A stretch of DNA of 64,000 bases from Bdellovibrionales bacterium (GTDB lineage Bacteria > Bdellovibrionota > Bdellovibrionia > Bdellovibrionales > UBA1609), in NCBI GenBank assembly GCA_965261545.1, contig CBDHDF010000010.1, positions 480,001-544,000 of the forward strand, given 5' to 3'. Within the stretch, counting starts at the first letter, position 1. Each line of letters begins with the position of its first letter. Of this stretch, positions 25,951 through 54,077 are shown piece by piece. The notes below the pieces were generated by a model. It was not told the origin of the DNA. It worked only from the letters and a program-made list of their open reading frames with translations, and made no database searches. The position numbers and the translations under genes were made by a program.

Positions 25951-25976
25951 CAATGCCATTCGTCTATGAAAAAGTA

Positions 25977-25982
25977 TGTCAA
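25977..25982 (-). promoter_or_regulatory. TTGACA -35 box in IS110 right end; circle junction would give TTGACA-N17-TAAATC
   Basis: Predicted junction ttgaca tactttttcatagacgg taaatc; -10 box imperfect. Confidence 0.5.
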
Positions 25983-26119
25983 GAAAATATACCTATCCAT
26001 GTTGCAAAAAATTACCATCTTTTGCTGCATACGGTCACCCGTCCTTCCGAAATCTCTCACCAAGTTCTTTCTAGCACTTCTTCTTCATGGTTAATGGCTT
26101 TTTATTTACATCTCTAAAA

Positions 26120-26330
26120 CAACATATTCCTATGATTCGTCTATTTGGACACTCTTAATTCAAGACCGGTTGGAAAATGCTCCTTCCTACAATCTTCAAT
26201 TTGGGTCATCGTAAATGTTAAGGAATAGAGGACGTACTAATCGTTTAAATGAACCTTTATGGCTATCGAATGGATTGAGCTATCTATCCTCACCTCATAA
26301 TAAAGTCATTGTCTACTTTTCGCTATATGC
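26120..26330 (-). ncRNA. Predicted bridge/seek RNA of the IS110 element (intact copy; ends approximate)
   Basis: Two stem-closed loops with guides CCATTCG and TTTAAACG (target), ATTTAC-G and ATAGACG (donor). Confidence 0.8.
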
Positions 26331-26376
26331 TTAAAGAACTACTGAGATTTTTATGAGGCTGTTTTAATATATTTTA

Positions 26377-28202
26377 GAGCCTGTAAACTATTTTGTGTAA
26401 CTGCCGAATCATATTAGGATGAACTATCATCCTGAAAGGAGAAGGCAGAATGGATATCAAGACAATAGGCAAGGAACTAGCGAAGAACGTCAAGACCCAA
26501 AAGGATTTATCCGACATAACGGGTCAACTGATGAAGGTTGTTTTAGAGACAGCTCTTAATGCGGAAATGGACGATCACCTAGGTTATGAGAGGCATGAGA
26601 AGTCTGAGACCCGCAAATCCAACACTCGCAATGGTTACAGTAGAAAGACCATAAAGGGAGAGAAAGGCGAGGTGGAGCTTCAGGTCCCCCGTGACCGAAG
26701 TGCCTCCTTTGAGCCCCAAGTCATTCCCAAAGGCAAGACTCGTCTTGAGGGCTTTGAAGACAGTATTCTGACCCTCTATGCGAGGGGAATGACGACCAGG
26801 GATATTCAAGGAGCTATCAAAGACCTCTACCATGGTGCAGAGATATCCCACTCAGTGATAGCCAACGTGACGGATGCTGTTATTGATGAAGTTACGGCTT
26901 GGCAGAACCGCCCCTTGGATAGCACTTACCCTATCGTATTTTTGGACTGTATCGTGGTGAAGGTCCATCAAGACAAGAGAGTTATTAATAAGGCGATTTA
27001 CCTAGCTCTTGGTATTACAGAGGAGGGTCAGAAAGACTTGTTGGGCCTATGGATTTCTGAAAATGAGGGTTCAAAGTTTTGGTTGAGTGTTTTGACTGAG
27101 CTGCAAAATCGAGGGTTGAAAGACGTATTTATATTTTCTGTAGATGGTCTTACAGGTTTTCCTCAAGCCATTTCAGCGGCTTTTCCCAAGTCTAAAGTGC
27201 AACTGTGCATTGTCCATATGGTCCGCAATTCCCTTCGCTATGTCCCTTCCAAGGATATGAAAGCTGTCGCCCAAGACCTCAAGTCCATTTATGGCTCTAC
27301 GACTCTGACAGAAGCTGAAAAGGCCCTTGAGGAATTTTGTACCAAGTGGTCTTCAAAGTATCCGAATATTGAAAAGTCTTGGCGTAGGAATTGGGACAAT
27401 CTCATCACTATTTTCGATTATCCGGATGAAATCAGAAAGATTTTTTATACCACAAACGCCATAGAGTCGTTAAATAGCGTGATCCGCAAGGCGATCAGAA
27501 ATCGTAAGATATTTCCCAGTGATCGGTCGGCTTTAAAAGTTGTATATTTAGCGATAAAAATGGCCTCTAAGCGATGGACACGACCATTACACAACTGGAA
27601 GCCAGCCATGAACAGGTTTGCCATTGAATACGGTGACCGTTTTGACAACTAAGTTTTTTAATAAGGTCCACCACCTGCCTTATAAGGGGGCTTAAAAGCC
27701 CCTCTAAGGCGTTGACAGAAGTACTGGAATACCGAGACTATGGTTAGGGTAATATAGTATGGGAACCTAAATACATGCCCTCTTGGTGCAGATTTGGGTT
27801 TCCATTTTTTTTCATGTTTCATCCCAATGCTGGTATTTCTCGAATATCCCAAGTTAAAAAAAATAAAAAAAAGGGGGTAATATAGTATGGGAACCTAAAC
27901 ACATGAACCCTTTGATGAGATTGGAATTTCCATTTTTTTGAGAGAGCTATTGCTGATTTTTTTCCAATCAAGATGATAATTATTTATTTGAGTTCTTTCC
28001 AGTTCTGATATGATCCCATTACGGCTCCATCTCCCCATTAAATTATAATGCATTGTGACTGACAAAATCGCTTGAAGGAAAAAATGTCAATTATACATTG
28101 ACGAATAATATGGGGCTGTGCTTTTTACTAGGAGTGGAGCCACATAAGTGGCTTTAAGATTTAAGAAAAAAATTGCAGTTACACAATTATTTTTACAGTC
28201 CC
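26377..28202 (+). mobile_element. IS256-family element
   Basis: 28-bp imperfect IRs (gagcctgtaaactattttgtgtaactgc / gggactgtaaaaataattgtgtaactgc); 8-bp TSD atatttta at 26369-26376 and 28203-28210. Confidence 0.93.
26450..27652 (+). CDS. IS256-family transposase
   Basis: RNGY, VPRDR, FLDC, VDGLTG, QLCIVH, YTTNAIES motifs. Confidence 0.95.
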   Translation: MDIKTIGKELAKNVKTQKDLSDITGQLMKVVLETALNAEMDDHLGYERHEKSETRKSNTRNGYSRKTIKGEKGEVELQVPRDRSASFEPQVIPKGKTRLEGFEDSILTLYARGMTTRDIQGAIKDLYHGAEISHSVIANVTDAVIDEVTAWQNRPLDSTYPIVFLDCIVVKVHQDKRVINKAIYLALGITEEGQKDLLGLWISENEGSKFWLSVLTELQNRGLKDVFIFSVDGLTGFPQAISAAFPKSKVQLCIVHMVRNSLRYVPSKDMKAVAQDLKSIYGSTTLTEAEKALEEFCTKWSSKYPNIEKSWRRNWDNLITIFDYPDEIRKIFYTTNAIESLNSVIRKAIRNRKIFPSDRSALKVVYLAIKMASKRWTRPLHNWKPAMNRFAIEYGDRFDN

Positions 28203-29087
28203 ATATTTTACATTTTTGTATTTCCTGTAGGGTTTAAATTTTTCTTCAGACTTCAAAACTCCTAATGCTAAAGCAGCTATTCTTCTTGAAATGGCGTTCC
28301 TGGCTTTGTGTGGTGGATAATTTCTTTCTGTAATTAACTGCTCATACCAGTCATTGAATTCATTTTTCCCACCAATAACTGTCAATGCAGCCACCTTAAA
28401 AACACATTTCATTTGCCGATGTTAGGCGCCAATTAAAATTGGCCATTTTTAGAAGCCGTCGCCAATGAAAAACGGCCAGTTGATGATGTACTGATTTAGT
28501 TATTCTTCGTTCAGAGTTTAGTCAAGTGTCTTTATTTTGCTCATCATTTAACTCCGACTATGCCACAAGATTCTGAGGAATGATTTTCTGCCCACCACTT
28601 TTGGCATGACCCCAAATGCATCCTTCAGCCCTATGGCAGAGGTAAATGGAGTATTTTTCAGGATTCCTTGGCGCAGCTAATGTCTAAAGCTCCGCAAGAG
28701 TGACGAGCAAATAGTACGGTAAAAGCCAGTTATCCATAAATTTATCCATGGCGACACTGCGGCTGTGACCCCGATGTCTAGCAACGCAGTGCTGCTGGTG
28801 TGCCCAGCACAATATAGGAGGTAACGACTATAGAAAGCTGACATGATGATGGTGGTAGGTCCACCGTTCTCGATTTACAGGAATTGGGAACAAACAACCC
28901 TAAGCTGCGCAGGGGGCAAGACCTGGGTGGTGAGCGTTAGGGAAAAGGCCAGAATAACTGGTCATGTGTAGTCTGTGAAGATGAGCGAAAGCGAACCATC
29001 GATGAGGCGTCGAAAATGCGTTAGTTGCTGTCAAAACCAAGGTCCCGGTAGTACCTTGGGATAAACTCGGAAGGTACCTGATTACTG

Positions 29088-31248
29088 GTCGAGTAGGGAA
29101 GGAGGTTTCCCCCCTTCCCCCTCCCAGAGCCGAACGTGCGCAACTAACGCATTCGGCTCCTCTGATTATAGGTTCACTGCTTGGTTGGGATAGGCGCACC
29201 GACTCTCACTAGTGTGAAAGTTTTCCAGCTTTCCTTACTAGACATTCCATTGGAATTGCTGGAAGGGGCGCCTAATCCTTGGTATGGGTAACGGGAAGCG
29301 CTTCAACAATCGGTTGTACGCCTCCCAGTTGATCTGGCGTCTTTGCGTCCTCCTCATGAGCCACTTTTTCCAAATTCTGATGACCACCCGGTAGAACCGC
29401 TTTATGTTGCGGTAGTTCCCGGGTATACCATAATAGGCATAGTGACCGTAGAGAAACTGCTGCAAACGGTTGGCTTGATGCTTGAGGGGAGCATGACGAT
29501 GCCGTTTACACCAGAGGCTTACGGATGCAAGCCCCCGATCCAGACGACTTTTCATCGTGCCTCGAAAGACAACCCAGTTTCCCTTCAGAGATTTCCTCCA
29601 TGTGTGGCTGAAACCTAAGAAGTCGAACGACTGGATTTTTCTCACGTCCCTCTCGTATCCCTTGAGGTTCGTGCGGGAAATACGGTAGGGAGGAGGGCGG
29701 AAATCTACGATCCGAGACTTCTCGGGGTGCATTGTTAGCCCAAATCGAGCAAGTCTTTTTGGCAACACCTCGTAGATTCGCCGTGCGTCCTCTTCCCTCT
29801 GGAATCCCATCACGAAGTCGTCGCAGTATCGAGCCATAAACCCGTATCCTTTGAGTCGTGGTTTGACATCCTTCTCAAACCATTCATCTAAGACATAATG
29901 GAGAAATACGTTAGCCATGAGCGGGGAAGCCACCCCACCTTGCGGTGTACCTGATATCGGCTTGGTGGTTCGCCCCTTATCCATGATCTCTGCATTCAGC
30001 CATTTGTCTATCAACCGACGGATCACTCCGTCTCGCACTCGCTTGGCGAGAATCTTACGAAGCTCAGAATGAGAGATGGTATCAAAGAATTTCTGGATAT
30101 CAATATCTAATACCCAGTAGGCTCGATGGTCCATCATTTCATTGCGAATTCCCTCTAGTGCTTGGTGGCATGATCTTCCAGGACGGAAGCCATAGGAGCA
30201 GTTGTAGAATTCCTGCTCATACACCGCTTCAAGAACCATCACGACAGCTCTTTGAGCTACCTTGTCCTCGATCGTCGGGATGCCTAGTGGGCGCAGACTT
30301 CCATCGGCCTTGGGAATGTAGTGACGTCTGATTTTGGGCGCACGATAGCTCCCAGATTTCAGGCGTCCGAGAAGATTTTGAAGATTTTCCTCAAGCTTCT
30401 CTTCGTACTCCTTCGCCGTTATGTTATCTACACCTACCGCCCCATCCTTTCGGGTGAGACGCCACGCCTCTTTCAACCAATCTATGGTGATAAAGTGGTT
30501 GAGGGAAATTATAGCTTTGCCCTTCGTGTGTCTCGCTATCTCTGCTATCCGAGATTTTTTCGTTGACACTATCTTGGTTGGATTCAATGTTCCTCCTAAT
30601 GTTTCAAAATACTCGAGTCTATAATCAGGTTAGCCCTTCCCTCGTTTGGGTCCCCTGCAAGTTCAGGTTCCCCACTCTCAACGGTACTATGGCTACCTCC
30701 GACTCCCTACAACCCATCGCCAGTCCCTTATTGATTCGTTGTGGCTACCTTGGCACGGAGATTCTTTTCGCTGCGGGTTCTGACATCTCCGTTTGCAGAA
30801 CTCGCCCTAGGTTTTTTTTCACAGGATACCGACCTGCTTGCACGCCTCGGAGGTTGTAGGGCCTCCTGTGTTACTAGGTCACCTCGATACACATTCGCCC
30901 CGCTCTACGACCCCGGCAGAATTCACACGACCTCGCTCATCTATGGGCGTGCAAATGTTGCCCCCCATTCTCGACACTCGAAGGGCTTCTGCAATTTCGT
31001 TCTGTTTCGTGGCTCAATCACGCGGCTTTTGCATCGCTGTTTACGCTTTACGGATGTTGTTCCACCTCCCACCCCTCACCATTCGGTGTCGAGGTTTCAT
31101 GATGTCCGTGTCCGCACAAAACTCGCTTCCAGTCGGGTGAGCTAGCCCTTACTGGGTGGGGTTCCAACCCACAAGATGACTTCAAAGGATTTCAAAACTT
31201 CATTTCCTATTCCATTCATTCCTCCTTTCTAGCCTTTGCACAGCGCAC
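29088..31248 (-). mobile_element. RT-encoding group II intron nested antisense in the ORF-less intron
   Basis: 5' GTGCGCTGTG; domain V gagccgaatgcgttagttgcgcacgttcggctc; 3' ctactcgac. Confidence 0.92.
29238..30587 (-). CDS. ltrA: Group II intron reverse transcriptase/maturase, no evident endonuclease domain
   Basis: RPLGIPT, SYGFRPGRS, GTPQGG, RYCDDF (YCDD variant), FDFLGF. Confidence 0.93.
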   Translation of the reverse strand: MNPTKIVSTKKSRIAEIARHTKGKAIISLNHFITIDWLKEAWRLTRKDGAVGVDNITAKEYEEKLEENLQNLLGRLKSGSYRAPKIRRHYIPKADGSLRPLGIPTIEDKVAQRAVVMVLEAVYEQEFYNCSYGFRPGRSCHQALEGIRNEMMDHRAYWVLDIDIQKFFDTISHSELRKILAKRVRDGVIRRLIDKWLNAEIMDKGRTTKPISGTPQGGVASPLMANVFLHYVLDEWFEKDVKPRLKGYGFMARYCDDFVMGFQREEDARRIYEVLPKRLARFGLTMHPEKSRIVDFRPPPYRISRTNLKGYERDVRKIQSFDFLGFSHTWRKSLKGNWVVFRGTMKSRLDRGLASVSLWCKRHRHAPLKHQANRLQQFLYGHYAYYGIPGNYRNIKRFYRVVIRIWKKWLMRRTQRRQINWEAYNRLLKRFPLPIPRIRRPFQQFQWNV

Positions 31249-31657
31249 GCCGAGTGGCAGCCGGCGTAAAGGTGGCATGAGCACAGACTTGGCGTCGTGT
31301 TGGAACTGGGGAACCTACTGGTGGATGTTAAGGGAACGGCTATAAGGTGGAAACCGAAGGGCAAATACCGATGACACCAGATAGGGGCAGAGAGACTCGT
31401 AGTAGTGAAGAAGGTTCTGTAACGGAGCTGGAGCGAAGGGGTCTCCTAATATGTGAGGAAACACTAACCAGTCGGACACTCTGTGGTCCATTTAAATGGT
31501 TTACAATAGTGGAACCTCGCAAATATTAGAGGAGCCGTATGACGGGAGACTGTCACGTACGTGTCTGTGAGGGGCAGTGGGGGAAGCTCCCACTGTCTAC
31601 TCGATTGGATAAATTTTGTGGATAACTGGCGAGTTCCTTCCCCAAAAGTGGGGATCT

Positions 31658-32035
31658 CTAATGAACTTCTTTGGTTGAACTTTCCTCTTTGCTCTGTTTA
31701 GACTTGGCTTTTGCCGATTCGGTTCTCCAACTTTCTTTTCCTTCAATGTTGAGGGTTTCACAGTTGTGAATGATTCGATCAACAGCAGCAGCGGTGGTAA
31801 TAGGGTTAAGAAACACCTTATCCCATTCAGAGTATGTTAAGTTTGTAGTGATCATGAGACTTTTCCTTTCATATCGCTGAGATATGAATTGAAAGAAAAG
31901 ATCTGCCCCCTCTGTGCAGGAAGCTGTATAGCCAAGTTCATCACAAGCAATAAGATCAAAACGGTCTAATTTCTTAAAAAGAGCATTCAATGAGAGTTCT
32001 TTCTTGCTTTCACGCATTGTTTCAATAAGTTCATG
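31658..32035 (-). pseudogene. istB: istB of IS21-A, 3' part
   Basis: Walker B LIACDELGY, ITTNL, VDRIIH; continues 47300-47704 (WVTT|HELIE). Confidence 0.85.
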
Positions 32036-32040
32036 AGTGG

Positions 32041-32990
32041 TGTGATCCAATACTTTATTTTGACGGACTTTTCATGGGTTCCTTTGACCTCGAAGCAATT
32101 TTTATGATTTTATCCTGACTGAGTTTAAGTTGTTGAGAGTGATATTTTGATTAGCAAGGTGTGTCGAGGTGAAGTGAGTGAAAAAAGGATGACTGATTCT
32201 CTCTGTTTGGTTTGCTCTCCCGCCTGGTGGCTCAAGAAATTAAGAGCACTTGAGATTTCCAAGTTCTCTTGGAAGGATAATTTCGCTGTATCTGATTTGA
32301 TGGATTATTTTTGGAAGCCTAGTTCCTGGCATTTAAAGCAGGAGATCCTCCCACAGGTGGTGGCTACTTGCTTGAATCGACGCAACATCCTGTTGCGGAT
32401 CTTTCAGTCTCGGGCTCCTGCCCTCGCCCCTCAGCCCCAGGGGGCTTTCGGGTACGACTGAAAGATTCTTAGTCTCGATTCCACATTGAGAGGAGATTGA
32501 GAGGAGCGTCCTATCCAGTGGGACTTTATTTGGCCCCTCAGGGAGAATAACTACCGACCATGTAGTTTAAATAAGTTCTGTGGCGGCTTGGCGAACATGT
32601 TCTTCTGTAATTTGTTCTTCAGAAGCTTTCATACATGCAATCAATGAACCTCTGGCAATCAAATTGGCTTTTCTTAGCAAGCCTCCAGAGCCCTGCCAAA
32701 TGGCTGTGACAGCATTATCTGTCATGAGTTTATTCTTGATTCCAGAGATTTTAAGGTGATGATCTAGATAATTTCTCATATTTTCTTCATTAAGAGCTGG
32801 TAGGTGAGCGTGGGTCATCACACGAGAAGCCAAGGGCAGAGAAGTTCTATACTTCAATTTATCAAGAAGGTTATTCTGTCCCACCAAAATAAGTGAGAAT
32901 CTTTTTTCAGAATCAAAGTTGAATTGGTTAATCGTATGCAATTCAGCAAAGACATCGACTCTCAATAAGGATGCCTCATCAATGATAACC
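32041..32990 (-). mobile_element. Right part of a three-gene DDE/ExeA transposon, with the ExeA 3' half at 32567-32980
   Basis: End TGTGATCCAATACTTTATTTTGAC matches 47705 end; 5-bp TSD ccact; IIDEA Walker B rejoins 51543. Confidence 0.85.
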
Positions 32991-33166
32991 CATAGGTGTT
33001 CGTGGTTTTTTTCTAATTTTAATTCCGAATTAATGGAAATACTTTTCAAGCCTCCTTTTTTACATAGAGGGAAGTGGGCGATTTATAAATATTTATAGAT
33101 GGTATTTTGAGAAATGGACGCAGATTGACATTTGATATCCACGACAAGCCATGTGTTTTAAGAGAC

Positions 33167-33631
33167 TTAATTGTGTAACGAAAGAACTGTGGACTTTTGG
33201 GAACAACAGAATTTAAATTTCTTTCCACTTCCGCATGGACAGGATTGATTTCTTCCAATTTTTTCGCTTTGGTCATTTTTCTGCTGTGATGCAGACATAT
33301 CTTCAGTTACAATTTTTTTTTGCTTTTCATCTTCCAAATCCTCATCCAAATTATCAAAAAGAATATCTCCTAGATTCTGGTGAAAGTAACGATTTTTAAA
33401 TTGAGATATGAGCATCATAAAAATACATGTAAGAACCAAAAGTGTGAGTGAAGCAAAAAACAAAGAAGATGCTTGCATCTGAGTTAATGGGAGGATGAGT
33501 GCCAGTAAATAACCAAATCCAAATACCAATAAGGAAATAAGAAGAGATATAAAGGATCCCAAAGAAAGTAATATTAAAAGTCCAAAAATCATTGCTATTT
33601 TTTGCTCCTGTCGAATACAATGAATCCGCAT
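33167..33631 (-). CDS. Membrane protein with C-terminal SEC-C motif (IS4-B passenger)
   Basis: Hydrophobic helices; GRNQSCPCGSGKKFKFCC. Confidence 0.8.
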   Translation of the reverse strand: MRIHCIRQEQKIAMIFGLLILLSLGSFISLLISLLVFGFGYLLALILPLTQMQASSLFFASLTLLVLTCIFMMLISQFKNRYFHQNLGDILFDNLDEDLEDEKQKKIVTEDMSASQQKNDQSEKIGRNQSCPCGSGKKFKFCCSQKSTVLSLHN

Positions 33632-33736
33632 AGATACAAGTGAGTTATCTACAGACTTAATGATTCTCGCGTTAGTATCTTAATAGGTCAAGATTAATTG
33701 GAGGAAATTTTTATTTTTTAAACGCAGGGGGCAAAT

Positions 33737-34981
33737 ATGAGCACGGAAGCTCAAACACTTAAAACGATCAAAAAATGTTTCAAGAAAGTTATTCCTGAAA
33801 AGGACTCTCGGGCAACCATTCCACCTCTTGAGTTTATTGTGGCTCTTGTCTTGTCATTCCAGGGAGACTCTAAGACATATTCAATAGAGGGAATTAGGAG
33901 GTTTATGATAAGTCATTTAGGATTAAGAATTGAAAGACACAGCTTCTGGGAAAGACTCTCTAGAAAAAGATTAAAAGAGCTTCTGAGTAAACTGGTTGAA
34001 ATGCTCATGATAAAGCTATCTCATGGAGCTTTTCATGGGAGCAAAGCCATATTATTACAACTGGGAGTCTCAGACGTTCTTCTTGTTGACTCAAGCACAA
34101 TAAGCCTTTGGGATGGAGCATCTGAGAATTTTCCAGGGACAAGAACAAACGCAGGAATTAAATGGCACGCTTGTTTCAGTTTATTCAGTGGTATAATGAC
34201 TTGGTTCGAATTAACTCCGTCTTCCACTAACGATAGGAAGTGCTTTCCTGATATAAAGGAACTCGTTGGAAAATTAGTCATCTTTGATTTGGGATATTGG
34301 GACTATGGCTTATTGTCATCTATTCATGAAGCTAAAGGATTTTTCTTGTCTAGAGTAAAGTCAAATGCCTCTATTCTTATTGATGCTGTTGTTGAAGGTT
34401 TGCCAGATTACTATGTTGGAAAAGAGTTCTCTGATATTAAACTCAAGAAAAAAAACGATGTTGTTGAATTTATAGGCAGTGTCTTGTCCAATGGTAAATG
34501 GGTAAGTTTGAGAATTGTAGGCTTCTGGAATTCCTCCGAAAAACGCTATCATTGGTATTGCACGAATTTAGATGTGGCAGCGGAGTCCATATATCCAATT
34601 TATCGTTTACGTTGGCAATGTGAACTTATTTTCAAATCTTGTAAGAATTCTTTGAATGCAAATCAGATCACCTCAAACGATCAAAATATCATAGAGAGTC
34701 TTCTTCTTGCTTCATTAGCGGCTCACCTCACATCAAGTGTTGTTTTGAGGATAGGAAGAACTAAACTCAATAAGGAACAAAATGACTCCACATCGTTTCA
34801 AAGAGTTGCTAAGGTTACCGTCTTATTAGCCTCTGATTTTATCAAATATCTCCTAAGCTCATCTCAAAAGTATTTAAATATTTTGATAGAGAAGATCAAG
34901 ATATTCTCCCATGAAATTTATGACACAAACTACCGACGGCGAAAAACATCAATGAATATGGCTAAAAAGGTCTTGCTATGA
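33737..34981 (+). CDS. IS4-family transposase
   Basis: LLVDSS, IFDLGY, YRLRWQCELIFK (YREK motif). Confidence 0.93.
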   Translation: MSTEAQTLKTIKKCFKKVIPEKDSRATIPPLEFIVALVLSFQGDSKTYSIEGIRRFMISHLGLRIERHSFWERLSRKRLKELLSKLVEMLMIKLSHGAFHGSKAILLQLGVSDVLLVDSSTISLWDGASENFPGTRTNAGIKWHACFSLFSGIMTWFELTPSSTNDRKCFPDIKELVGKLVIFDLGYWDYGLLSSIHEAKGFFLSRVKSNASILIDAVVEGLPDYYVGKEFSDIKLKKKNDVVEFIGSVLSNGKWVSLRIVGFWNSSEKRYHWYCTNLDVAAESIYPIYRLRWQCELIFKSCKNSLNANQITSNDQNIIESLLLASLAAHLTSSVVLRIGRTKLNKEQNDSTSFQRVAKVTVLLASDFIKYLLSSSQKYLNILIEKIKIFSHEIYDTNYRRRKTSMNMAKKVLL

Positions 34982-35008
34982 AAGAATAAAAAACCACGAA
35001 CACCTATG

Positions 35009-36559
35009 AACCTTTATGGCTATCGAATGGATTGAGCTATCTATCCTCACCTCATAATAAAGTCATTGTCTACTTTTCGCTATATGCTTAAAGAACTACT
35101 GAGATTTTTATGAGGCTGTTTTAATATATTTTACATTTTTGTATTTCCTGTAGGGTTTAAATTTTTCTTCAGACTTCAAAACTCCTAATGCTAAAGCAGC
35201 TATTCTTCTTGAAATGGCGTTCCTGGCTTTGTGTGGTGGATAATTTCTTTCTGTAATTAACTGCTCATACCAGTCATTGAATTCATTTTTCCCACCAATA
35301 ACTGTCAATGCAGCCACCTTAAAAACACATTTCATTTGCCGACAAGATCTAGAGTTTTTCTTTCCATAAATTTTTCCACCACTAACTCTAGCCAGCTTCA
35401 CTAGTCCACAGTAACTCCACCAAGAATTGCGTTCAAATCGATGAGGGTCTACAACACGAGCTACGATTTTAACAGCATTGATGTGTCCAATTCCTGGAAT
35501 TCCCTGGAGGTGTTTAATTTCTTTGTGTTTTCTGGCCAGTCTCTTGAATTCTGCGTCATAACGCTTCTTCTCTTCTTCATAAAAGGCAATGCTCGTATCC
35601 AATCCAAGGAGTACGAATATATCTTCTGATCTTTTTAACTCTGTTTTTTTCTTCGCATTTTCATGGGAGGCTCGAAACAATGCTGATCTCTGGTTTTTGC
35701 TTCGAACTCCTGCTTTGATAACATCTTCATATCCACTGATAATTTTTCTAAGATAAATAAAATCATCCCCTGAATGAAAGACTCTTTTTAAAAGACCTGA
35801 ACGCAACAGATGAACCAGCTTCTGAGCATCAATTTTATCATTCTTGGGTCCCTCACTCAGTAATTTATTGCGACAGGGATCACAAATCAAGAGTTCATCA
35901 ACATGATCTTTTAACTCTGTATATAGCCACTGTGAAGCCGTACTTTCTTCAATGGTGAGAGCTTTTGTGCCTTTAAGACTCTTCAAGTAGATTTGGAGTT
36001 CACTAACATCAGCTTTCACATCAGTGGCCTTGATGGCATTAGATTTGGCTGTCATTCTTGCAATGGCCATGTTGCTTTGCGCCCAGTCAACGGCGATATA
36101 ATGATCGTACTTCATAGGTTCCTCCTCCTTAGGTGGTTCTTTGTAACTAAATTTGTTCTCTGCCATTCATTGTAATAATAAATTTTTCGCCTGCTTATCG
36201 GTTTTTGGCTTGCTCGTTTGGGGCCTCTCACCCGTGAGAGGAGGCCCCAGCGAGCAAGGGAAAGAGTGAAAGATGCGCTGCACTCCCCAGTCCGTCTAGC
36301 GAAGCGGCAATTAGAGTGACAGACGCGGAGCGGCTGGCCACGATAATTGAGGACTGGGAAAAGAGTGCTAAGCATCTTGATCGGCTGTCTACATCTAAAT
36401 TGTGTGAGGGCAACCAAGTTCCTAAGCGATTTCTGTACTTTAGTCACATTTAAATGCTTGAAGTTCTCTTGGGGAACTCGGAGGCTCAAGACTATTTTTT
36501 TTGCATATGGCATGTATGTTTGAACGAGACTTTGGGTGACCATCTTTTTCGATTTACCG
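35009..36559 (-). mobile_element. IS110-family element copy R, 5' part (rest at 53562-54057)
   Basis: CG core at 36558-36559 abutting cttaag of the IS4-A IR. Confidence 0.9.
35108..36115 (-). CDS. IS110-family DEDD recombinase, intact (start placed at MKYDH after an aggagg RBS)
   Basis: AVDW, IEES, KNDKIDA (DEDD); GIPGIG; YCGL...SGG catalytic Ser. Confidence 0.92.
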   Translation of the reverse strand: MKYDHYIAVDWAQSNMAIARMTAKSNAIKATDVKADVSELQIYLKSLKGTKALTIEESTASQWLYTELKDHVDELLICDPCRNKLLSEGPKNDKIDAQKLVHLLRSGLLKRVFHSGDDFIYLRKIISGYEDVIKAGVRSKNQRSALFRASHENAKKKTELKRSEDIFVLLGLDTSIAFYEEEKKRYDAEFKRLARKHKEIKHLQGIPGIGHINAVKIVARVVDPHRFERNSWWSYCGLVKLARVSGGKIYGKKNSRSCRQMKCVFKVAALTVIGGKNEFNDWYEQLITERNYPPHKARNAISRRIAALALGVLKSEEKFKPYRKYKNVKYIKTAS

Positions 36560-36679
36560 CTTAAGAATGGTTGAATTTATCCTAAGAAAGGTGTTGTTTT
36601 AGCAAATAAAATATGTGACATTATTTTTAAAGGAGCATTGGAGACTTCAAAATTTTAAATTTACAAAGGAGCGAACAAA

Positions 36680-37925: not shown

Positions 37926-37926
37926 A

Positions 37927-42193: not shown

Positions 42194-42272
42194 TGTGATT
42201 GCTCCTTTCCTCTAGAAGAGGGGTTGGGGGGGTGGATTAAGTAAGGTTGGTGCTAGGCTGAGGGTGTAAGGG

Positions 42273-44826: not shown

Positions 44827-46732
44827 GGTGTAAGGGTGAGTGGTAGATTTCGTTGTTGGCATGTAAATCCCAGTAGATGGCATACTCGGATGGTGCTCGA
44901 ATGATGTCGTGGTCTTGGGTGAGGTGGGATTCCATCTTTTTCTCATCCACAGGGGGCTGTAGTTCCTCAACAAGCCTTTTAAAGACCCTAAGAGATAAGA
45001 CCCCTCTGCTCACAGCCTGAATGGCTGCTTTTTCAATAAGATCAGAGTGATATTTTTTAGCCAAGGACACCACCCCACGCATCTGCCTGTTTCCAACTCT
45101 CTCATCCACCCTGAGTAATGACTGACAAAAAGCTTTTGTTTGAGGGCCAATCTGACCCGCATCAGCTAAAATATTTTCTACATGGCGAGATGGATTATAA
45201 ACACGATCTTTGTCTAGCAAAGAGAGACTCCCCGGGAGAGTGGCTTTTTGGTGGCGGCGGATAACACTCATCGTAGCAGGGTCCATAATCTCTATGTCTT
45301 TATCATAAATACGCACAATGACTTGGCTCTTTAGATCAGAAGGGTAGGCGCAATAGTAACTGTTTCCCACTTGAATGAGCCCATCGTCTGCAACTGTTCG
45401 TATCTCTTGTTTAAAAAAATCAAATTTCTTTTGGGGGAGCTTTTTGAGAAAGGGGCTCTCTTCTTCAAACATCTCAGAAACGACTCGCTTGGTGCGACCA
45501 TGGACCCGAGGGCGAGCCCAAGTGTGCTCCCAGTGCATGAGCCACTCATTTTGCTCCTCAATGGTTTTAAATGAACGACCCTTCAGTGCTGTGTCTTGGG
45601 TGTGGTGAATGGCGTGCTCAACGGTTCCTTTCCTATCAGGATCACGAACTCTTGCCGGGTCAGCAACGACCCCGTAGTGAGTCAGTACAGCGCCATAAAC
45701 GGCGTTCAGCGTTGGCTCATAGATATCTGGCTTAATAACACCTTCCTTGAGATTGTCTAAGACGACATATTGAGGGCAGCCCAAAAAATAATGAAAAGCC
45801 TCCTCATGGAGTCTGCTCCACGTCTCTTGGCTGGACTTCCAAACAACCTTGCGAAAAGAGGCACGAGAGTACTTGAGGGTCATCACAAAAAGGCGAGGCC
45901 GCCTATATTTGCCTGTCCGGGGGTGAACAGTCAGAGCCCCTTGGCCATAATCCACTTGGGCTTCCTCTCCGGGGGGAAAATCCAAGCGATCATAGCGTTT
46001 GGGAGTACTCTTCTTCAGCTTCCTTACAAATTTTTTCACGCTGTCGTAGGAGTGAGAAAAACCAAATTTCTCCACTAAATCTTGGTAGATGGCCATTCGA
46101 TTGCGCTCTAAGTTCAAAGCCTGATTTTCAATCCAAGCCCTGTGGGGCTCACAAGCCGACTGATGACATAAGGGGCGTTGAGAGGTTTTATCTTTAAGAG
46201 ATTTTTTCAATCCAGGTGGTTCTATACAGTCCGTGGATCCAGTTTCTGTGGGAGCAGCCATCGGTTCCACCATGGTTGTGGATGGGCGCGTGAGGCAGGC
46301 GGAGGAGTGCATGGAAGCCCCATCAGACACGACAAGACATGCTGAGCCTGATCCTATAGGGGAAGATGGAGGCGTTTCTAAGGGGGGTGTGGCTTCCCCT
46401 AGAAGAACCTGCTGATTGAATTCTGTGGAGGAGACCGAAACTTCCTTGGGCTTTTCGAACTGGGCCACAGGAAGGCTTGGAGGCTCCGCAGAGCAAATTT
46501 CAGGAGAACATGAAGATGAACATGACTCTGCTTCTGAGCACACCGAAAAGGCTGGAGATTTTGGCTCTATACCTCCTGTACGCCCCTTTTTGGCAATGAC
46601 CCTATGGGCTTTCGCATACTCTGAAACCGTAGATCGACCTACATGTAGCCTTTTCGCTATTTTACGAAATGAGTGACCTGCTATAATTAATGTTAATATC
46701 TCTTCTTGTTTTTGTTTATTCAAGACGTTCAT
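44827..46732 (-). CDS. istA: IstA of IS21-B with a Ser/Pro-rich insert; last codons displaced to 42238-42272 by IS4-D
   Basis: PGEEAQVDYG, VLDNLK, DRKGTVE. Confidence 0.88.
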
Positions 46733-48019
46733 CCTTCCCTCCCAGGTTGTTTTCTAGAAGGTATTTTACAATACGCCTTGTCAGATATTAAATTTTAAAT
46801 GGCCTGGTTTGCCCGCCCACAAATGGCCTGGTTTGCCCTCCCCTCCGGGCTATCATGTCACGATCTATCGTGCAGGAGGGAAGCAAGAAATTGTCGCTCG
46901 CCATCAAAGAAAACCTGATGGGGAGCATAGTCTTCTTCTTGAACATATCCTTCCCTCTTTAGTTCGTAAGCCGCAAGCCATGGTAAGATGGGCTCACCGA
47001 TCCATTCTTTTTCCAACAAATGTGTTTGAAAATTTTTATCAATACCTCAAGCAACAAGATTCAAGCCGTGCCGAGCATGAATATTTAAGAGTTATCAACT
47101 TGATTCAGCATGTGAGTTGGCAGGACTTATCTACAGCCATGGAGCTTCAATTAGAAAGTCGTGAGATTTTCGACTTTAAATCCATAAAAGATTTGCTCTT
47201 AGGCAATCCCACCAAAATTAATTTGAATGACCAACAAAAACCACTTCAACCTAGATTGTCTCAATATGACAGTCTTGTTCCAAACATAGGAGGTTCTTAA
47301 TGAATCACGAAGAACTTATAGGTTCTCTTAAAAAACTCCGACTTCCAGCGATGGCGGATGAATATGTTGCAACGGCTAGAGTTGCCGAAAAAACAAAAAA
47401 GACGTATGAACAGTATTTAGGTATACTCGTTCAAAATGAGCTTGCTGACAAGCATTCCCAGAGAGTGAAAAGATTGCTTAAGGGGGCCAAGCTTCCTCAA
47501 CTTAAATCACTCCAAACTTATAACTTCCAGAAAAGAACGGGAGTGACAGCTCAGCAAATTAATTGGATGGCAGAGGGAGAGTGGGTCAGAAAAGCCTGTA
47601 ATGTTGTGTTTTACGGAAGCTTTGGAATGGGGAAAAGTCATTTGGCCATGTCCCTAGTTCGTTCACTCTGTGAACAAGGCTATCGATGTTTATGGGTCAC
47701 CACTTGTTATACGATACTTTATTCTGACTAGAATTCGCCTTTATTTTTTATTTTTCTTTGACCATCCCTAGAGAATTATTACATTCCCTTGACTAAGTCT
47801 TGTCATAACCTCCCCATGAGTTTAATACTCTGCATCAGGAGGTGTTATGATTTTAGCTACTTTTGTATCAACGGATGACCTTGTAAAAGAAGGTAAGAAT
47901 TACAATTGGAAGAGGCCATGTAAGTGCCAAAATCCCGGATGTAAAAGTGAGAAGCTCTGGGGCCATGGCTATGTGAAGAGATACTTTTTTGCATGCTCTG
48001 AAGCGGTCTACCTCAAGCG

Positions 48020-49436
48020 CAATGCCGTTTCCTTAAGCCACCACACCCCTCTGCCTCTGCGTTAAGCTATTTCTTTTAAAAGAACTCCCAGCCCTTTTGA
48101 TAGACCTTTCATAGCTTCTTTTGAAGTGCCTCCTCTTCTCCATTGAAATCTTCATCAGCAACTTTATCTGCTTCCTAAATTTCTGATAGAGCCCCGCAAC
48201 AAAAAGAGGGATGCTATCCATTATGAAATCAAGAATCAGTTTAAAGTTAGGTTTTTTGTAGTCATTTTTTACCAACTGATTCACACTGTCTTCATCCTCA
48301 TTTATGCTCATTTGAATCTTTGTATAATTGAAGAGCCAAAAATAAGAATACAGCTCTTGCAATATTCCATTAAGGCTTGTTGAGTGCCACTGCTCCATTT
48401 TCATTGTCGATGTAAAATCACGAAATGTCGTTTCTATTTCCCAACGACGAGAGTAAAGAGCAACCATATCCTTCTTGTCCAAGGAGCCATGCGGAAGATT
48501 AGTGGCCAAAACAGAGAACTCCCCAGTCTTTGGGTTTTTATACTTATAGAGATGAATGACCACCCCCTCAATAACCATTCGTGAATACCAACCTGGGCCA
48601 TTAAATAAATTTACAATGGGGATAAAAGTAGAGCCTCGCTTACAACGCGCAATAAAGAAGTTACTGGCTTGAGCATGGGCCTTAATAATCTCTGTAGATA
48701 AATAAAGCCTATCGTAGAGAGTTATGCTATTACTCTCAAAACTACCTATCATTTGAATAGCATTGGCGATTTCGTTGAGAGCGGGAGAAAAGCAAAGATT
48801 CTTTGTCACACCCGATAAAACGTCATAAGCATGAGATAGATACATACGTAAGAAATGAGTTTCCATCTCATTTGGGCAAGGGTACCCACAATAACCCTCC
48901 TTTAAAAGATCTTTAGAGCGAGGAAGTGCTAATTGGTCGCCATCTATGGCATAGATATAAAAACCATGAAACGTTTTTCTCAATGGTTCGTAGTCTGTAA
49001 TCAGAGATTCAAAGATATCTTTGAAAAATAGGTAAGAAATACTTTGACGTATCTTGCTGAGACTGCTTTTGACTGGCATGAGAAGCAGGTCACCAAAATG
49101 AGTCCATACCGTCTTAAGAGCGATTTGGTAGCCTTCGTAATTTGTTCCGGAAATAAGATAGATAATGGTAAAAAAGAAAATTTGAGGATTAAATTTTCGA
49201 TTCCTTTTTTGTTTTTCTGGATCGACAAGGTGCTCTGGCTTGAAGGAAGAATCAAGTTTTGGTAGAATAAAATGGTCATCTGTGACGCGAACTCGTCATT
49301 TGGGGGCTTTCGAGATCAATATTGGATTGCATGTGACTTACTCCTTGGTTGAGGGTTGGGTGTAAAATAAAACAAGTCTTATTCTTGTCGATTTATCTAA
49401 TAATTTCAAGAGATTTTTCTTAAGGAAACGGCATTG
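48020..49436 (-). mobile_element. IS4-family element IS4-C (1417 bp), related to IS4-A
   Basis: 18-bp perfect IR caatgccgtttccttaag; 10-bp TSD acctcaagcg. Confidence 0.95.
48033..49332 (-). CDS. IS4-C transposase; RBS-led ATG is out of frame with the main ORF (+1)
   Basis: AIDGDQ, LYDRLY, YSRRWEIETTF; frame open upstream to 49295. Confidence 0.8.
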
Positions 49437-49858
49437 ACCTCAAGCGCTGGCGGTGTCCTCACTGCCACAGTGTTATAACGACAAGACCCAAGTCGTTCTG
49501 GCGTCGTTTTCAAGAGACAAAGTCTCGTATTTTCGAAGCATTACGACATCGTCTGAACCCCAAGATTCCCAAGGCATGGCCCCTTTGGACAACGAGGCAA
49601 AGAGCGGGGCACTGGCTGAAAAAACTTCTTAATCACGCTAAGGCTTATAATCTGATGAAAGAAAAAGATCCACTTAGCACAGTGGCCTTTTATCAAGAGA
49701 AAAACCTGGACATTTTTGGTTAACGAAGTTTGCCAGTGCTCCCATTTATTTTCAACCTACCGTTTCTTGTCATTAACAAAGAGTCAGGAAGTTGTGTATC
49801 TCTTATTTCAAGAAAGATTTCCAATAACGGAAATTAAATCAAAGAAAGAGAGGTCAAA

Positions 49859-51157
49859 ATGGCTGATAAGGACAAGAAAATGGAGGTTGCCACCTTTAGA
49901 TTCGGAGTGATTTCTGAATTTGTTACAGGGTTGCGCCTTGAATATGGAGAAAAAGAGAGATTGCTTACGGAAAAATCTTCCAAGAGCTATCGTGTTCCCT
50001 ACTCATCATCGACTCGTGTGAGTCGTTCCACCATAAAAAAATGGATTGCAGACTACAAGGGATCGGGCAATAGATTAGAGGGGCTTATGCCATCGGATCG
50101 CAAGGATCAAGGTCAATTTAGAAGTCTTGATGAATCTCTCCAAGTGGTCATTAAAGAGATCATGAAGGCAAAGGGACATTTTACAGGCATAGCCCTTGTC
50201 AATGCTCTACGTCAGCGCGGCTCTATTGGTACCAATGAAGAGATCAATATGAGTGTGCTTTATAGATTTTTAAAGCATCACAAATTGCAACAAAAAGAGT
50301 CCACAGATCGTAGGTCCTTTGAAGCTTCGTCTCCCAATGAAATGTGGCAGTCAGATGTTCTTCATGGCCCCATTGTGGTTGGCAAAAAGAGAAAGAAAGT
50401 AAAATCCTACCTCATTGCCATATTGGATGACAATTCTCGCATCATTCCCCACGGGGAGTTTTATGAGTCCGAAAGGCTTGAGAATATGAAGGATTGTCTT
50501 AAGAAAGCTGTTGAGAAGAGGGGGCTTCCTCAAAAGCTTTATATCGATAATGGGGCTTGTTTTAAGGCTATAAACTTGGAACAGGTCACAGCTTCCTTGG
50601 GTATTCAGATTATTCACACTCCTCCTTATACTCCTCAGGGTCGGGGGAAAGTGGAGCGTTGGTTTCGATATGTACGGGAAAACTTCTTTCCTCGCTGCGA
50701 TGAAAAAACCTTGAGCCTTGAAGAACTGAATGAGGTATTTTCTGACTGGGTGGAGAGTTATCACCACAAAGTTCATGGAACCACTGGCGAAACTCCATTG
50801 GCGAAATTCCGTAAAAATATGAAGTGTGTTCGTCCCGCTCCCCCCAATCTATTGGACTATTTTCGATTTATTCAATTTCGACGAGTTAAAAAGGATCGAA
50901 CTTTTCATTTGAATGGAACCATATATGAAGCTCCCGTAGACCTGATCGATAGAAGAGTGGAACTCAAGTTCCACAGAGAGACTCCCGAAGATGTTGAAAT
51001 TTTCTTTGATGGAAGAAGCTTTGGTCAGGCCAATTTATTGGATCGGCATGTGAATTTTTACTTGGGTCGCAATGGAAAGGTGACTTCTGCCACGAAAGAG
51101 ACAAAACCAAAATCAGGAGAATTATTTTCAGGAGATAAAACAGGAGGTAAGAAATGA
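49859..51157 (+). CDS. DDE integrase-core transposase with Mu-like C-terminal region
   Basis: WQSD, ILDDNSR, YIDNG, GRGKVER, HGTTGETP. Confidence 0.9.
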   Translation: MADKDKKMEVATFRFGVISEFVTGLRLEYGEKERLLTEKSSKSYRVPYSSSTRVSRSTIKKWIADYKGSGNRLEGLMPSDRKDQGQFRSLDESLQVVIKEIMKAKGHFTGIALVNALRQRGSIGTNEEINMSVLYRFLKHHKLQQKESTDRRSFEASSPNEMWQSDVLHGPIVVGKKRKKVKSYLIAILDDNSRIIPHGEFYESERLENMKDCLKKAVEKRGLPQKLYIDNGACFKAINLEQVTASLGIQIIHTPPYTPQGRGKVERWFRYVRENFFPRCDEKTLSLEELNEVFSDWVESYHHKVHGTTGETPLAKFRKNMKCVRPAPPNLLDYFRFIQFRRVKKDRTFHLNGTIYEAPVDLIDRRVELKFHRETPEDVEIFFDGRSFGQANLLDRHVNFYLGRNGKVTSATKETKPKSGELFSGDKTGGKK

Positions 51158-51543
51158 AATACATTGAATATTTTGGAATGAAGTTCTCTCCTTTTAATGA
51201 CAATCTTAAATCCAAAGACCTTATGTCTTTACCTGGAACAATGGCAGTGAAAGAGAGATTGGATTATGTTCTTTCCATTGGTGGAATTATGGTCGTCACC
51301 GGCGATGTTGGCACCGGAAAATCCACCGCCATGAGATGGAGTTTAGATCAATTCCACAAATCTGAAATTAACAGCTGTTATGTGACGGCGAACAGTGGCT
51401 CAACCAGTGAGCTATATAGACAATTGTGTTGGAGTATAAATTTAAATTTAAGAGGAAACCATAGGTCCTTCCTTCTTAAGGAATTCAAAGAAGCCATCTC
51501 AGAAATATTAGAACAACAAAGAAATAAAATTGTGGTTATCATT
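51154..51543 (+). pseudogene. ExeA-like AAA+ ATPase, 5' half
   Basis: YFGMKFSPF, GDVGTGKS; rest at 32980-32567 (minus strand). Confidence 0.85.
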
Positions 51544-51570
51544 CATAGGTGTTCGTGGTTTTTTATTCTT

Positions 51571-52815
51571 TCATAGCAAGACCTTTTTAGCCATATTCAT
51601 TGATGTTTTTCGCCGTCGGTAGTTTGTGTCATAAATTTCATGGGAGAATATCTTGATCTTCTCTATCAAAATATTTAAATACTTTTGAGATGAGCTTAGG
51701 AGATATTTGATAAAATCAGAGGCTAATAAGACGGTAACCTTAGCAACTCTTTGAAACGATGTGGAGTCATTTTGTTCCTTATTGAGTTTAGTTCTTCCTA
51801 TCCTCAAAACAACACTTGATGTGAGGTGAGCCGCTAATGAAGCAAGAAGAAGACTCTCTATGATATTTTGATCGTTTGAGGTGATCTGATTTGCATTCAA
51901 AGAATTCTTACAAGATTTGAAAATAAGTTCACATTGCCAACGTAAACGATAAATTGGATATATGGACTCCGCTGCCACATCTAAATTCGTGCAATACCAA
52001 TGATAGCGTTTTTCGGAGGAATTCCAGAAGCCTACAATTCTCAAACTTACCCATTTACCATTGGACAAGACACTGCCTATAAATTCAACAACATCGTTTT
52101 TTTTCTTGAGTTTAATATCAGAGAACTCTTTTCCAACATAGTAATCTGGCAAACCTTCAACAACAGCATCAATAAGAATAGAGGCATTTGACTTTACTCT
52201 AGACAAGAAAAATCCTTTAGCTTCATGAATAGATGACAATAAGCCATAGTCCCAATATCCCAAATCAAAGATGACTAATTTTCCAACGAGTTCCTTTATA
52301 TCAGGAAAGCACTTCCTATCGTTAGTGGAAGACGGAGTTAATTCGAACCAAGTCATTATACCACTGAATAAACTGAAACAAGCGTGCCATTTAATTCCTG
52401 CGTTTGTTCTTGTCCCTGGAAAATTCTCAGATGCTCCATCCCAAAGGCTTATTGTGCTTGAGTCAACAAGAAGAACGTCTGAGACTCCCAGTTGTAATAA
52501 TATGGCTTTGCTCCCATGAAAAGCTCCATGAGATAGCTTTATCATGAGCATTTCAACCAGTTTACTCAGAAGCTCTTTTAATCTTTTTCTAGAGAGTCTT
52601 TCCCAGAAGCTGTGTCTTTCAATTCTTAATCCTAAATGACTTATCATAAACCTCCTAATTCCCTCTATTGAATATGTCTTAGAGTCTCCCTGGAATGACA
52701 AGACAAGAGCCACAATAAACTCAAGAGGTGGAATGGTTGCCCGAGAGTCCTTTTCAGGAATAACTTTCTTGAAACATTTTTTGATCGTTTTAAGTGTTTG
52801 AGCTTCCGTGCTCAT
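51571..52815 (-). CDS. IS4-family transposase (same protein as 33737-34981)
   Basis: Identical translation in the ORF track. Confidence 0.93.
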   Translation of the reverse strand: MSTEAQTLKTIKKCFKKVIPEKDSRATIPPLEFIVALVLSFQGDSKTYSIEGIRRFMISHLGLRIERHSFWERLSRKRLKELLSKLVEMLMIKLSHGAFHGSKAILLQLGVSDVLLVDSSTISLWDGASENFPGTRTNAGIKWHACFSLFSGIMTWFELTPSSTNDRKCFPDIKELVGKLVIFDLGYWDYGLLSSIHEAKGFFLSRVKSNASILIDAVVEGLPDYYVGKEFSDIKLKKKNDVVEFIGSVLSNGKWVSLRIVGFWNSSEKRYHWYCTNLDVAAESIYPIYRLRWQCELIFKSCKNSLNANQITSNDQNIIESLLLASLAAHLTSSVVLRIGRTKLNKEQNDSTSFQRVAKVTVLLASDFIKYLLSSSQKYLNILIEKIKIFSHEIYDTNYRRRKTSMNMAKKVLL

Positions 52816-52920
52816 ATTTGCCCCCTGCGTTTAAAAAATAAAAATTTCCTCCAATTAATCTTGACCTATTAAGATACTAACGCGAGAATCATTAAGTCTG
52901 TAGATAACTCACTTGTATCT

Positions 52921-53385
52921 ATGCGGATTCATTGTATTCGACAGGAGCAAAAAATAGCAATGATTTTTGGACTTTTAATATTACTTTCTTTGGGATCCTT
53001 TATATCTCTTCTTATTTCCTTATTGGTATTTGGATTTGGTTATTTACTGGCACTCATCCTCCCATTAACTCAGATGCAAGCATCTTCTTTGTTTTTTGCT
53101 TCACTCACACTTTTGGTTCTTACATGTATTTTTATGATGCTCATATCTCAATTTAAAAATCGTTACTTTCACCAGAATCTAGGAGATATTCTTTTTGATA
53201 ATTTGGATGAGGATTTGGAAGATGAAAAGCAAAAAAAAATTGTAACTGAAGATATGTCTGCATCACAGCAGAAAAATGACCAAAGCGAAAAAATTGGAAG
53301 AAATCAATCCTGTCCATGCGGAAGTGGAAAGAAATTTAAATTCTGTTGTTCCCAAAAGTCCACAGTTCTTTCGTTACACAATTAA
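52921..53385 (+). CDS. SEC-C motif membrane protein (IS4-B passenger)
   Basis: Identical translation to 33167-33631. Confidence 0.8.
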   Translation: MRIHCIRQEQKIAMIFGLLILLSLGSFISLLISLLVFGFGYLLALILPLTQMQASSLFFASLTLLVLTCIFMMLISQFKNRYFHQNLGDILFDNLDEDLEDEKQKKIVTEDMSASQQKNDQSEKIGRNQSCPCGSGKKFKFCCSQKSTVLSLHN

Positions 53386-53561
53386 GTCTCTTAAAACACA
53401 TGGCTTGTCGTGGATATCAAATGTCAATCTGCGTCCATTTCTCAAAATACCATCTATAAATATTTATAAATCGCCCACTTCCCTCTATGTAAAAAAGGAG
53501 GCTTGAAAAGTATTTCCATTAATTCGGAATTAAAATTAGAAAAAAACCACGAACACCTATG

Positions 53562-54057
53562 CATAAAGGTTCATTTAAACGATTAGTACGTCCTCTATTC
53601 CTTAACATTTACGATGACCCAAATTGAAGATTGTAGGAAGGAGCATTTTCCAACCGGTCTTGAATTAAGAGTGTCCAAATAGACGAATCATAGGAATATG
53701 TTGTTTTAGAGATGTAAATAAAAAGCCATTAACCATGAAGAAGAAGTGCTAGAAAGAACTTGGTGAGAGATTTCGGAAGGACGGGTGACCGTATGCAGCA
53801 AAAGATGGTAATTTTTTGCAACATGGATAGGTATATTTTCTTGACATACTTTTTCATAGACAGCAAAAGATGGTAATTTTTTGCAACATGGATAGGTATA
53901 TTTTCTTGACATACTTTTTCATAGACAGCAAAAGATGGTAATTTTTTGCAACATGGATAGGTATATTTTCTTGACATACTTTTTCATAGACAGCAAAAGA
54001 TGGTAATTTTTTGCAACATGGATAGGTATATTTTCTTGACATACTTTTTCATAGACG
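53562..54057 (+). mobile_element. IS110 copy R right end, with the 3' part of the split bridge RNA
   Basis: Reverse complement of 25961-26261 plus three extra 65-bp units; CG core at 54056-54057. Confidence 0.9.
53796..54055. repeat. Exact 65-bp tandem repeat, 4 copies
   Basis: cagcaaaagatggtaattttttgcaacatggataggtatattttcttgacatactttttcataga x4. Confidence 0.97.
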
Positions 54058-54077
54058 AATGGCATTGAAGTACGACA

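Follow-up and report, generated by a model that had tools for sequence, protein, structure and literature searches.

The 64,000-nucleotide stretch studied here (the window; positions 480,001 to 544,000 of contig CBDHDF010000010.1, assembly GCA_965261545.1, from a Bdellovibrionales bacterium) carries a 28-kb nest of insertion sequences (IS) inside a DUF285 gene. Within this nest lies a member of the IS4 family, here called IS4-A, both of whose terminal inverted repeats (IRs) are interrupted at the same base by the same element of the IS110 family. Coordinates refer to the window, unless they are preceded by a contig number (C2, C4 and so on) of G000, the window's own genome (4.3 Mb in 11 contigs). 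The double invasion had been proposed in an initial annotation of the DNA, and all four junctions were found where that annotation had placed them, an observation that holds once five nested insertions and one inversion have been undone. The outer junction, CAATGCCATT-CG-TCTATG, is read at 25951 and, in reverse, at 54067, and the inner junctions are GATTTAC-CG-CTTAAG (36557-36565) and GATTTAC-CG-TTTAAA (37929-37921, reverse). Between the latter lies the body of IS4-A (36560-37926, plus strand; 98.9% identical to the free copy described below), whose transposase frame (36684-37925, first in-frame ATG at 36834) has a DDE_Tnp_1 domain. The IRs are distributed over four short pieces: the outer 12 bp of the right IR with the CG core at its end (25951-25962, plus), the core with the inner 6 bp of the left IR (36558-36565, plus), the inner 6 bp of the right IR with the core (37921-37928, minus), and the core with the outer 12 bp of the left IR (54056-54067, minus). 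The whole unit is flanked by two identical copies of a 10-bp target duplication, AAGTACGACA, at 25941-25950 and 54068-54077.

A free copy of IS4-A (C4:3508-4898, 1,391 bp) has its own 10-bp duplication and both IRs empty, and its ends, CAATGCCATTCG-CTTAAG and CAATGCCATTCG-TTTAAA, are exactly the two IRs that had been reconstructed from the window; the piece at 25951 matches its right IR at C4:4898. It is this copy that fixes the limits of the IS110, at 1,838 bp between two CG cores. The 1,842 bp given initially is correct if both cores are counted (with one core the length is 1,840 bp), and neither IS110 copy is physically intact in the window. When the unit and one duplicate were removed in silico, a 288-codon open stretch ran across the joint in the DUF285 gene; the boundaries and the empty site are established by these comparisons. 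The earlier picture of an ancestor with an IS4 transposase gene between inverted arms was borne out, with arms of about 1.86 kb after the nest has been undone.

Both IS110 copies, the one in the right IR (copy b) and the one in the left IR (copy a), have been broken up. Copy b begins with its right end, an intact guide-RNA region and the last recombinase codons (25963-26376, minus; assigned from a BLAST map and an end motif conserved in homologues), and in these last codons sits an IS256-family element with a Transposase_mut domain (26377-28202, plus; 8-bp duplication). A further part of copy b (28203-28419, minus) is followed by another insertion into this copy, the left portion of an IS21-family nest that includes a group II intron (28420-32990; 5-bp duplication GCCGA), by an IS4-B copy at one inversion breakpoint (32991-35008, plus; recognised by its swapped duplications) and by the left end and intact recombinase gene of copy a (35009-36557, minus; Pfam domains and motifs). 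On the far side of IS4-A lie the left end of copy b with the 5′ part of its broken recombinase gene (37929-39148, plus), the remainder of the copy b nest within the inverted segment (39149-51543; IS21-type, DruA-domain IS4, IS4-C and other IS pieces), the other IS4-B copy, which parts the pair of target guides in copy a and marks the other breakpoint (51544-53561, minus), and the right end of copy a (53562-54055, plus). After nesting, copy a has an intact recombinase gene and a split guide RNA, and copy b a broken gene and an intact guide region.

The segment 35009-51543 is recognised as inverted because the 10-bp duplications of the IS4-B copies, AACCTTTATG and AATGATAACC, are swapped (AACCTTTATG, beside the copy at 51544-53561, equals 26252-26261 of the intact copy), and the corrected pairing of the ends is also backed by the nested IS256 and IS21, whose duplications (8 and 5 bp, respectively) match. 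The nesting has an order that the sequence establishes: IS4-A first entered the DUF285 gene, copy b then inserted into its right IR and copy a into its left IR, copy b was later hit by IS256 and the IS21 nest, and copy a by IS4-B, at a point precisely between the target guides. Another IS4-B entered the nest, and the segment between the two inverted IS4-B copies then flipped, the present nest being the product of these later IS256, IS21 and IS4-B insertions and of the IS4-B/IS4-B inversion. The near-identical IS of which the genome is full, and a 65-bp tandem repeat at 53796-54055, might suggest that the nest or its mirror symmetry arose in assembly; the chance of such an artefact is next to negligible, however, as five independent pairs of duplications can be matched up without contradiction, the frame of the host gene stays open across the empty site, and short-read contigs support the inner joint. 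In contigs from two of four public runs (X1 and X3), on the related C2 locus, IS4-A is joined to inverted IS110 ends, and contigs of X2 and X3 contain a free left IR with flanks unlike those of C4; the runs come from a single sample, from which the assembly itself may derive.

In the tandem at 53796-54055, the final 65 bp of the IS110 are repeated head-to-tail to give four copies (three of them extra, 53861-54055), and the unit begins with a look-alike of the left-end repeat, a homology that also defines a 70-bp mini-element at C2:599037. IS4-B carries as a passenger a membrane protein with a SEC-C motif (33167-33631 and 52921-53385), and the IS4 with a DruA domain in its transposase (42273-44826) is present in 25 copies by tip count.

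The invader is an IS110 element of the IS1111 type. The intact recombinase gene of copy a (35108-36115) encodes 335 amino acids with the Pfam domains DEDD_Tnp_IS110 (PF01548) and Transposase_20 (PF02371), both above cut-off; the D, E, D motifs and the serine of SGG are invariant in 16 aligned proteins, and the sole match among PDB structures is the IS621 recombinase (E 8.7e-5). Sub-terminal inverted repeats, which match at 11 of 14 bp, begin 7 and 5 nt inside the cores. The terminal extensions are 7 (left) and 5 (right) with the CG core counted on neither side, compared with 7 bp and 3 bp given for the IS1111 group in PMC11187229, where the counting conventions differ. The left end, at 442 nt, exceeds the right end (388 nt), contrary to the expectation for the IS1111 group; in homologues the right end is the longer one (median 386 nt, n = 63, versus 113 nt for the left, n = 74), and the long left end is read as a local gain. 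This end (36116-36557) exceeds that of homologues by about 330 nt, gives a better fold than shuffled sequences (z = -2.65) and contains a 143-residue frame without a Pfam match. A circular intermediate with a promoter at its junction is a trait of the IS1111 group, and end-to-end joining of the element would create TTGACA-17 bp-TAAATC; no such circle joint was found in the contigs of the four runs, which drop rare forms, and its absence there carries no evidential weight.

Downstream of the recombinase gene, in the 388-nt end, CCATTCG and TTTAAACG flank a small hairpin, and ATTTAC and ATAGACG follow. The predicted bridge or seek RNA spans 26123-26299 in copy b (minus strand, as are the guides; limits approximate, from a 33-sequence alignment). 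Within it, CCATTCG (26267-26273) would read the outer IR half and core and TTTAAACG (26242-26249) the inner half and core, both positions following the flanks in homologues. ATTTAC (26211-26216) is the probable donor guide for the left end of the element, its core-adjacent base agreeing in 55 of 57 homologues, and ATAGACG (26138-26144) probably that for the right end and core, with a variable base that agrees in 62 of 62.

For the comparison with homologues, a protein search yielded 1,446 relatives, and an alignment of 16 retrieved 80 metagenome loci; together with two distant ones these made 82 loci, of which 70 could be parsed, duplicates being removed before pairing. Guide and left flank agreed at 4.40 of 5 bases in 48 distinct pairs (2,000 shuffles: mean 1.66, maximum 2.19), and guide and right flank at 4.39 of 5 in 46 pairs (2,000 shuffles: mean 2.84, maximum 3.39), where the guide was allowed to slide in a 14-nt window, hence the higher background; the relatives in both tests are not independent of one another. 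The 33-sequence consensus fold has a conserved scaffold with two loops, in which the target guides lie unpaired, and two-sided changes occur in 22 of 35 predicted pairs. The guide–target correspondence is established by these alignments, and the downstream RNA fits the seekRNA or bridge RNA described for IS1111-group elements (PMC11187229, PMC11208160); it is presumably expressed and active. No Rfam model matched the region, and the upstream non-coding end, considered as an alternative carrier of the guides, gave short, scattered matches. In the C2 copy of the IS110, the guide-RNA stem is interrupted, 3 nt away from the first guide, by a group II intron-like element of 2,160 bp (L262, C2:601375-603534; GTGCG...AT ends and a reverse-transcriptase frame) with the same orientation as the RNA; its splicing would restore the stem.

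A recombinase programmed by the downstream-end RNA would recombine at CCATT-CG-YTTAA, i.e., at positions 6-17 of the 18-bp IR of IS4-A, presumably via a circular intermediate. Both IRs carry this target in opposite orientation, and for that reason each holds one IS110, inserted at an identical base, so that the two copies mirror each other. An RNA-guided recombinase of the IS1111 type, two separate insertions into the IRs, and later nesting and inversion offer in our view the best explanation of the locus, with a probability of about 0.85.

The flanks of the IS110 ends, tabulated across G000, proved to be specific to the IS4 IR, and the copies do not lie mainly elsewhere. An exact search of the genome returned ten right-end junctions, nine of which adjoin CAATGCCATT while the tenth is a remnant with one mismatch to it, which excludes chance; five of the seven left-end junctions adjoin inner IR bases. 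Seen from the side of the host, 10 of the 12 IS4-A tips are occupied or scarred, compared with none of the 310 tips of its sister elements (0/260 for IS4-C and 0/50 for the DruA-IS4). Over 13 positions the guides match the IRs of IS4-C at 8, those of the DruA-IS4 at 10 and those of IS4-A at 11-13. Two of the occupants are miniature: a right IR at C2:599037 holds one of 70 bp, and a left IR at C11:725713 one of 265 bp, the latter terminating at an internal sequence that resembles the right end. At C2:275399-275751 a scarred IS4-A right end was seen, in which the tip, the core and about 11 bp of the IS110 end are fused to the IS4-A interior; this scar is an imprecise loss of the IS110. A degenerate tandem remnant of the chimeric junction lies in otherwise unique DNA at C11:693400-693455. 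A second, abundant IS110-family element, whose copies share a repeated flank, was noted at C10:577804-579521, 33.8 kb past the window.

Several observations weigh against the explanation by RNA-guided insertion. Two of the seven left-end junctions lie outside an IS4 IR, at C10:246672 (23-bp match) and C10:837028 (101 bp, 92%), both being short or diverged remnants, and four of the ten occupied tips lack an IS4-A interior and are assigned by the 12-bp tip only. The left IR was invaded despite two mismatches to the target, one of the donor guides matches the core incompletely, and outer junctions number 10 against 5 inner ones. The guides alone are also insufficient: four non-IS sites with up to one mismatch to the 13-base target, and 142 sites with up to two, are empty.

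Among the copies of IS4-A with an invaded left IR (window, C2 and C11), divergence reaches 10 substitutions in 178 bp, against 0-1 in 265 bp for the IS110 ends residing in them. At C2, the left-IR IS110 is identical to the right-IR copy of the window over 1,220 bp, and differs at four positions from the window's left-IR copy. Since the hosts are far more diverged than their residents, and the C2 passenger equals copy b, repeated independent invasion is demonstrated. The 99.7% identity of the two mirror-image copies over these 1,220 bp could also be taken to mean that a single real insertion was duplicated in the other IR, through gene conversion or through recombination between the two ends. 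This is very improbable, as each end has retained its own inner IR bases, which are not the same at the two ends, four positions distinguish the copies and the C2 copy is equal to copy b, and the guide explains both sites; an 18-bp IR is, moreover, too short a homology for copying between ends.

IS4-A itself resembles the IS4 subgroup, which is described by an end consensus -AATR--------WTW, a duplication of 10-13 bp and a DDE_Tnp_1 domain (PMC2266710): both of its IRs fit the consensus, 10-bp duplications were seen at two of two complete sites, and the domain was found (PF01609, E 5e-13). It differs from the subgroup in the lysine of the YREK motif, which is replaced by threonine, as it is in IS4-C (Y-2-R-3-E is kept), and its size (1,391 bp, with 1,400-1,650 bp given for the subgroup) and its long frame without an in-frame start at the 5′ end may also set it apart. 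As the K is bracketed in the family-level paper, the replacement of the lysine weakens the assignment to the subgroup but not that to the family. The long frame begins after a stop that overlaps an out-of-frame ATG, and absence of a frameshift is a criterion of the subgroup. The same arrangement, with the long transposase frame starting right after the TGA of an ATGA, occurs in all five full-length elements (IS4-A, IS4-C and the relatives L243, L245 and L246 from other genomes), two further relatives being partial or broken; in the window it lies at 36670-36700 and 49270-49310 (minus). Most of these openings are preceded by a GGAG-like site, the next 12-14 bases are near-identical DNA, and no in-frame ATG follows for 50-177 codons. 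Such an arrangement points to programmed +1 frameshifting or to an unusual start, in a family that is said to be free of frameshifts. IS4-A is rare: there is a single free copy, with a gene that is either frameshifted or mis-sequenced, compared with 77 near-full-length matches for IS4-C; its rarity fits suppression without proving it. Among 108 other genomes of the family to which the bacterium belongs, five contained relatives of IS4-A, none above 42% identity, and no invaded IR was found in their loci.

One of 61 genomes searched, G008, from the same family, contains many copies of a relative of the IS110 with about 72% protein identity, whose RNA has the same scaffold with four guide variants and different targets. 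In this genome, 39 left and 34 right ends were found; among the 30 of each that were examined, 23 left and 20 right ends lie at two sites of a 1,408-bp IS630-family element, the inner edge of its left IR and a position 85 bp from its right end. At two loci (L054 and L062), the IS110 lies between the left IR of the IS630 and its final 85 bp, with the interior of the IS630 absent, and no empty form of this hybrid site was found in G008. The search of genome contigs for related loci returned distant relatives only. The idea that the clade as a whole specialises in IS ends was rejected on the flanks of the metagenome loci, whose named matches are mostly ordinary host genes: out of 109 flanking frames (homologues of 55-63% identity), six match transposases of other families, two an integrase and one another IS110. 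The habit of aiming at IS ends looks local to G000 and G008 rather than general to the clade.

The initial annotation had raised the possibility that the chimeric ends let IS4-A and both IS110s move together, in which case the doubly invaded unit would be a composite transposon and the scattered tips the remains of its jumps. The chimeric tip (outer 12 bp plus IS110 right end) does match the IR consensus at 16 of 18 positions, but it breaks the first W of the WTW motif of the subgroup (PMC2266710, Table 1), and the IR-like bases of the IS110 right end are conserved across the whole IS110 clade and are therefore no adaptation to IS4. The excess of outer over inner junctions (10 to 5 in G000; 34 to 9 in G008, where 60 ends were examined) would be expected from such jumps; the 10-to-5 ratio is weak, however, and tips bordering IS nests may simply outlast inward deletions. 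The empty near-perfect targets outside IS4-A also favor movement, as do the IS110s between IS630 ends at L054 and L062, for which no empty site was found, although these hybrids are explicable without movement, by recombination between two IS110s in the same direction. The proposed co-movement was not upheld by the duplications: only two pairs occur among the 12 tips, those of the window and of the free C4 copy, and a comparison of all pairings of the 12 tip flanks revealed no further unit in G000 with both IRs invaded and a duplication of its own. An apparent partner 10-mer at C11:693046 was rejected, as it lies in unique DNA with no IS end. The divergence of hosts and passengers is likewise inconsistent with co-descent. 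Hitch-hiking of this kind is distinctly unlikely, and we hold it equally doubtful that the split IRs are still alive, with the IS4 transposase moving a 5.07-kb unit that contains two RNA-guided recombinases. If true, IS-end targeting would be a hitch-hiking strategy, re-aimed by guide change towards IS630 in G008 and IS4 in G000.

With RNA-guided insertion as the preferred explanation, excision in IS621 being less efficient than insertion (PMC13626964) was counted in its favor. Tn3-family transposons with IS4321R or IS5075 in their IRs are asserted to have lost mobility (PMC5034289), and the immobilisation of IS4-A is plausible. Each insertion splits the IR 12|6, and would most likely block the IS4 transposase at that end until the IS110 excises.

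The parallel with IS4321/IS5075 drawn initially was sound in that IR invasion is known, and closer parallels exist than the one that had been named, with both IRs invaded in other transposons and with the IRs of another IS, IS1384, as a target. Partridge and Hall reportedly described in 2003 IS4321 and IS5075 in the terminal IRs of Tn21-subgroup transposons, and Muller et al. are said to have reported in 2001 that IS1383 targets the inverted repeats of IS1384. IS4321R lies in both IRs of Tn6317 and Tn6256 (PMC5034289), and the Tn21 case is restated in PMC3589745. Like IS4321/IS5075, the present element is of the IS1111 type and enters a terminal IR at a single fixed position, with either or both IRs open to invasion, and the host there is described as movement-deficient; unlike it, the host here is an IS4-subgroup IS with 18-bp IRs and not a Tn3-family transposon, the likeness being one of description rather than of sequence comparison. 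With IS1383/IS1384 it shares the IR of another simple IS as the specific target of an IS110-family element, but the host belongs to another family (IS1384 is an IS5-family element), the guide RNA is readable here, and a retargeted sister exists. Features shared with the seekRNA elements ISEc11, ISKpn4 and ISPa11 (PMC11187229) and with IS621 and its bridge RNA (PMC11208160) are the DEDD recombinase, the sub-terminal repeats, a downstream RNA with guides for both target strands, and a 2-bp core on both sides; the longer left end (442 nt) and the weak similarity of the recombinase to that of IS621 set it apart. For ISPpu9, short IS110 modules moved in trans have been described (PMC12288879). No IS110 element targeting IS4 or IS630 IRs was found in the literature searched, though ISfinder, TnCentral and the target tables of PMC11187229 and PMC11208160 may hold one. 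The habit of IS110 elements of invading IRs, even both, is already known, and the IS4-type victim appears to be new.

The ends of IS4-type and IS630-type elements are added by these two genomes to the mobile-element ends that are hit by RNA-guided IS110s. The two recombinases, about 72% identical and with the same RNA scaffold but different guides, form a natural retargeting pair, and G000 provides near-miss controls in the 25-copy DruA-IS4 and the 128-copy IS4-C, both untouched, together with two mini-derivatives. While the case is tidy rather than surprising for the specialist, the rules of specificity and the old, mostly assumed claim of host immobilisation become directly testable in a small system.

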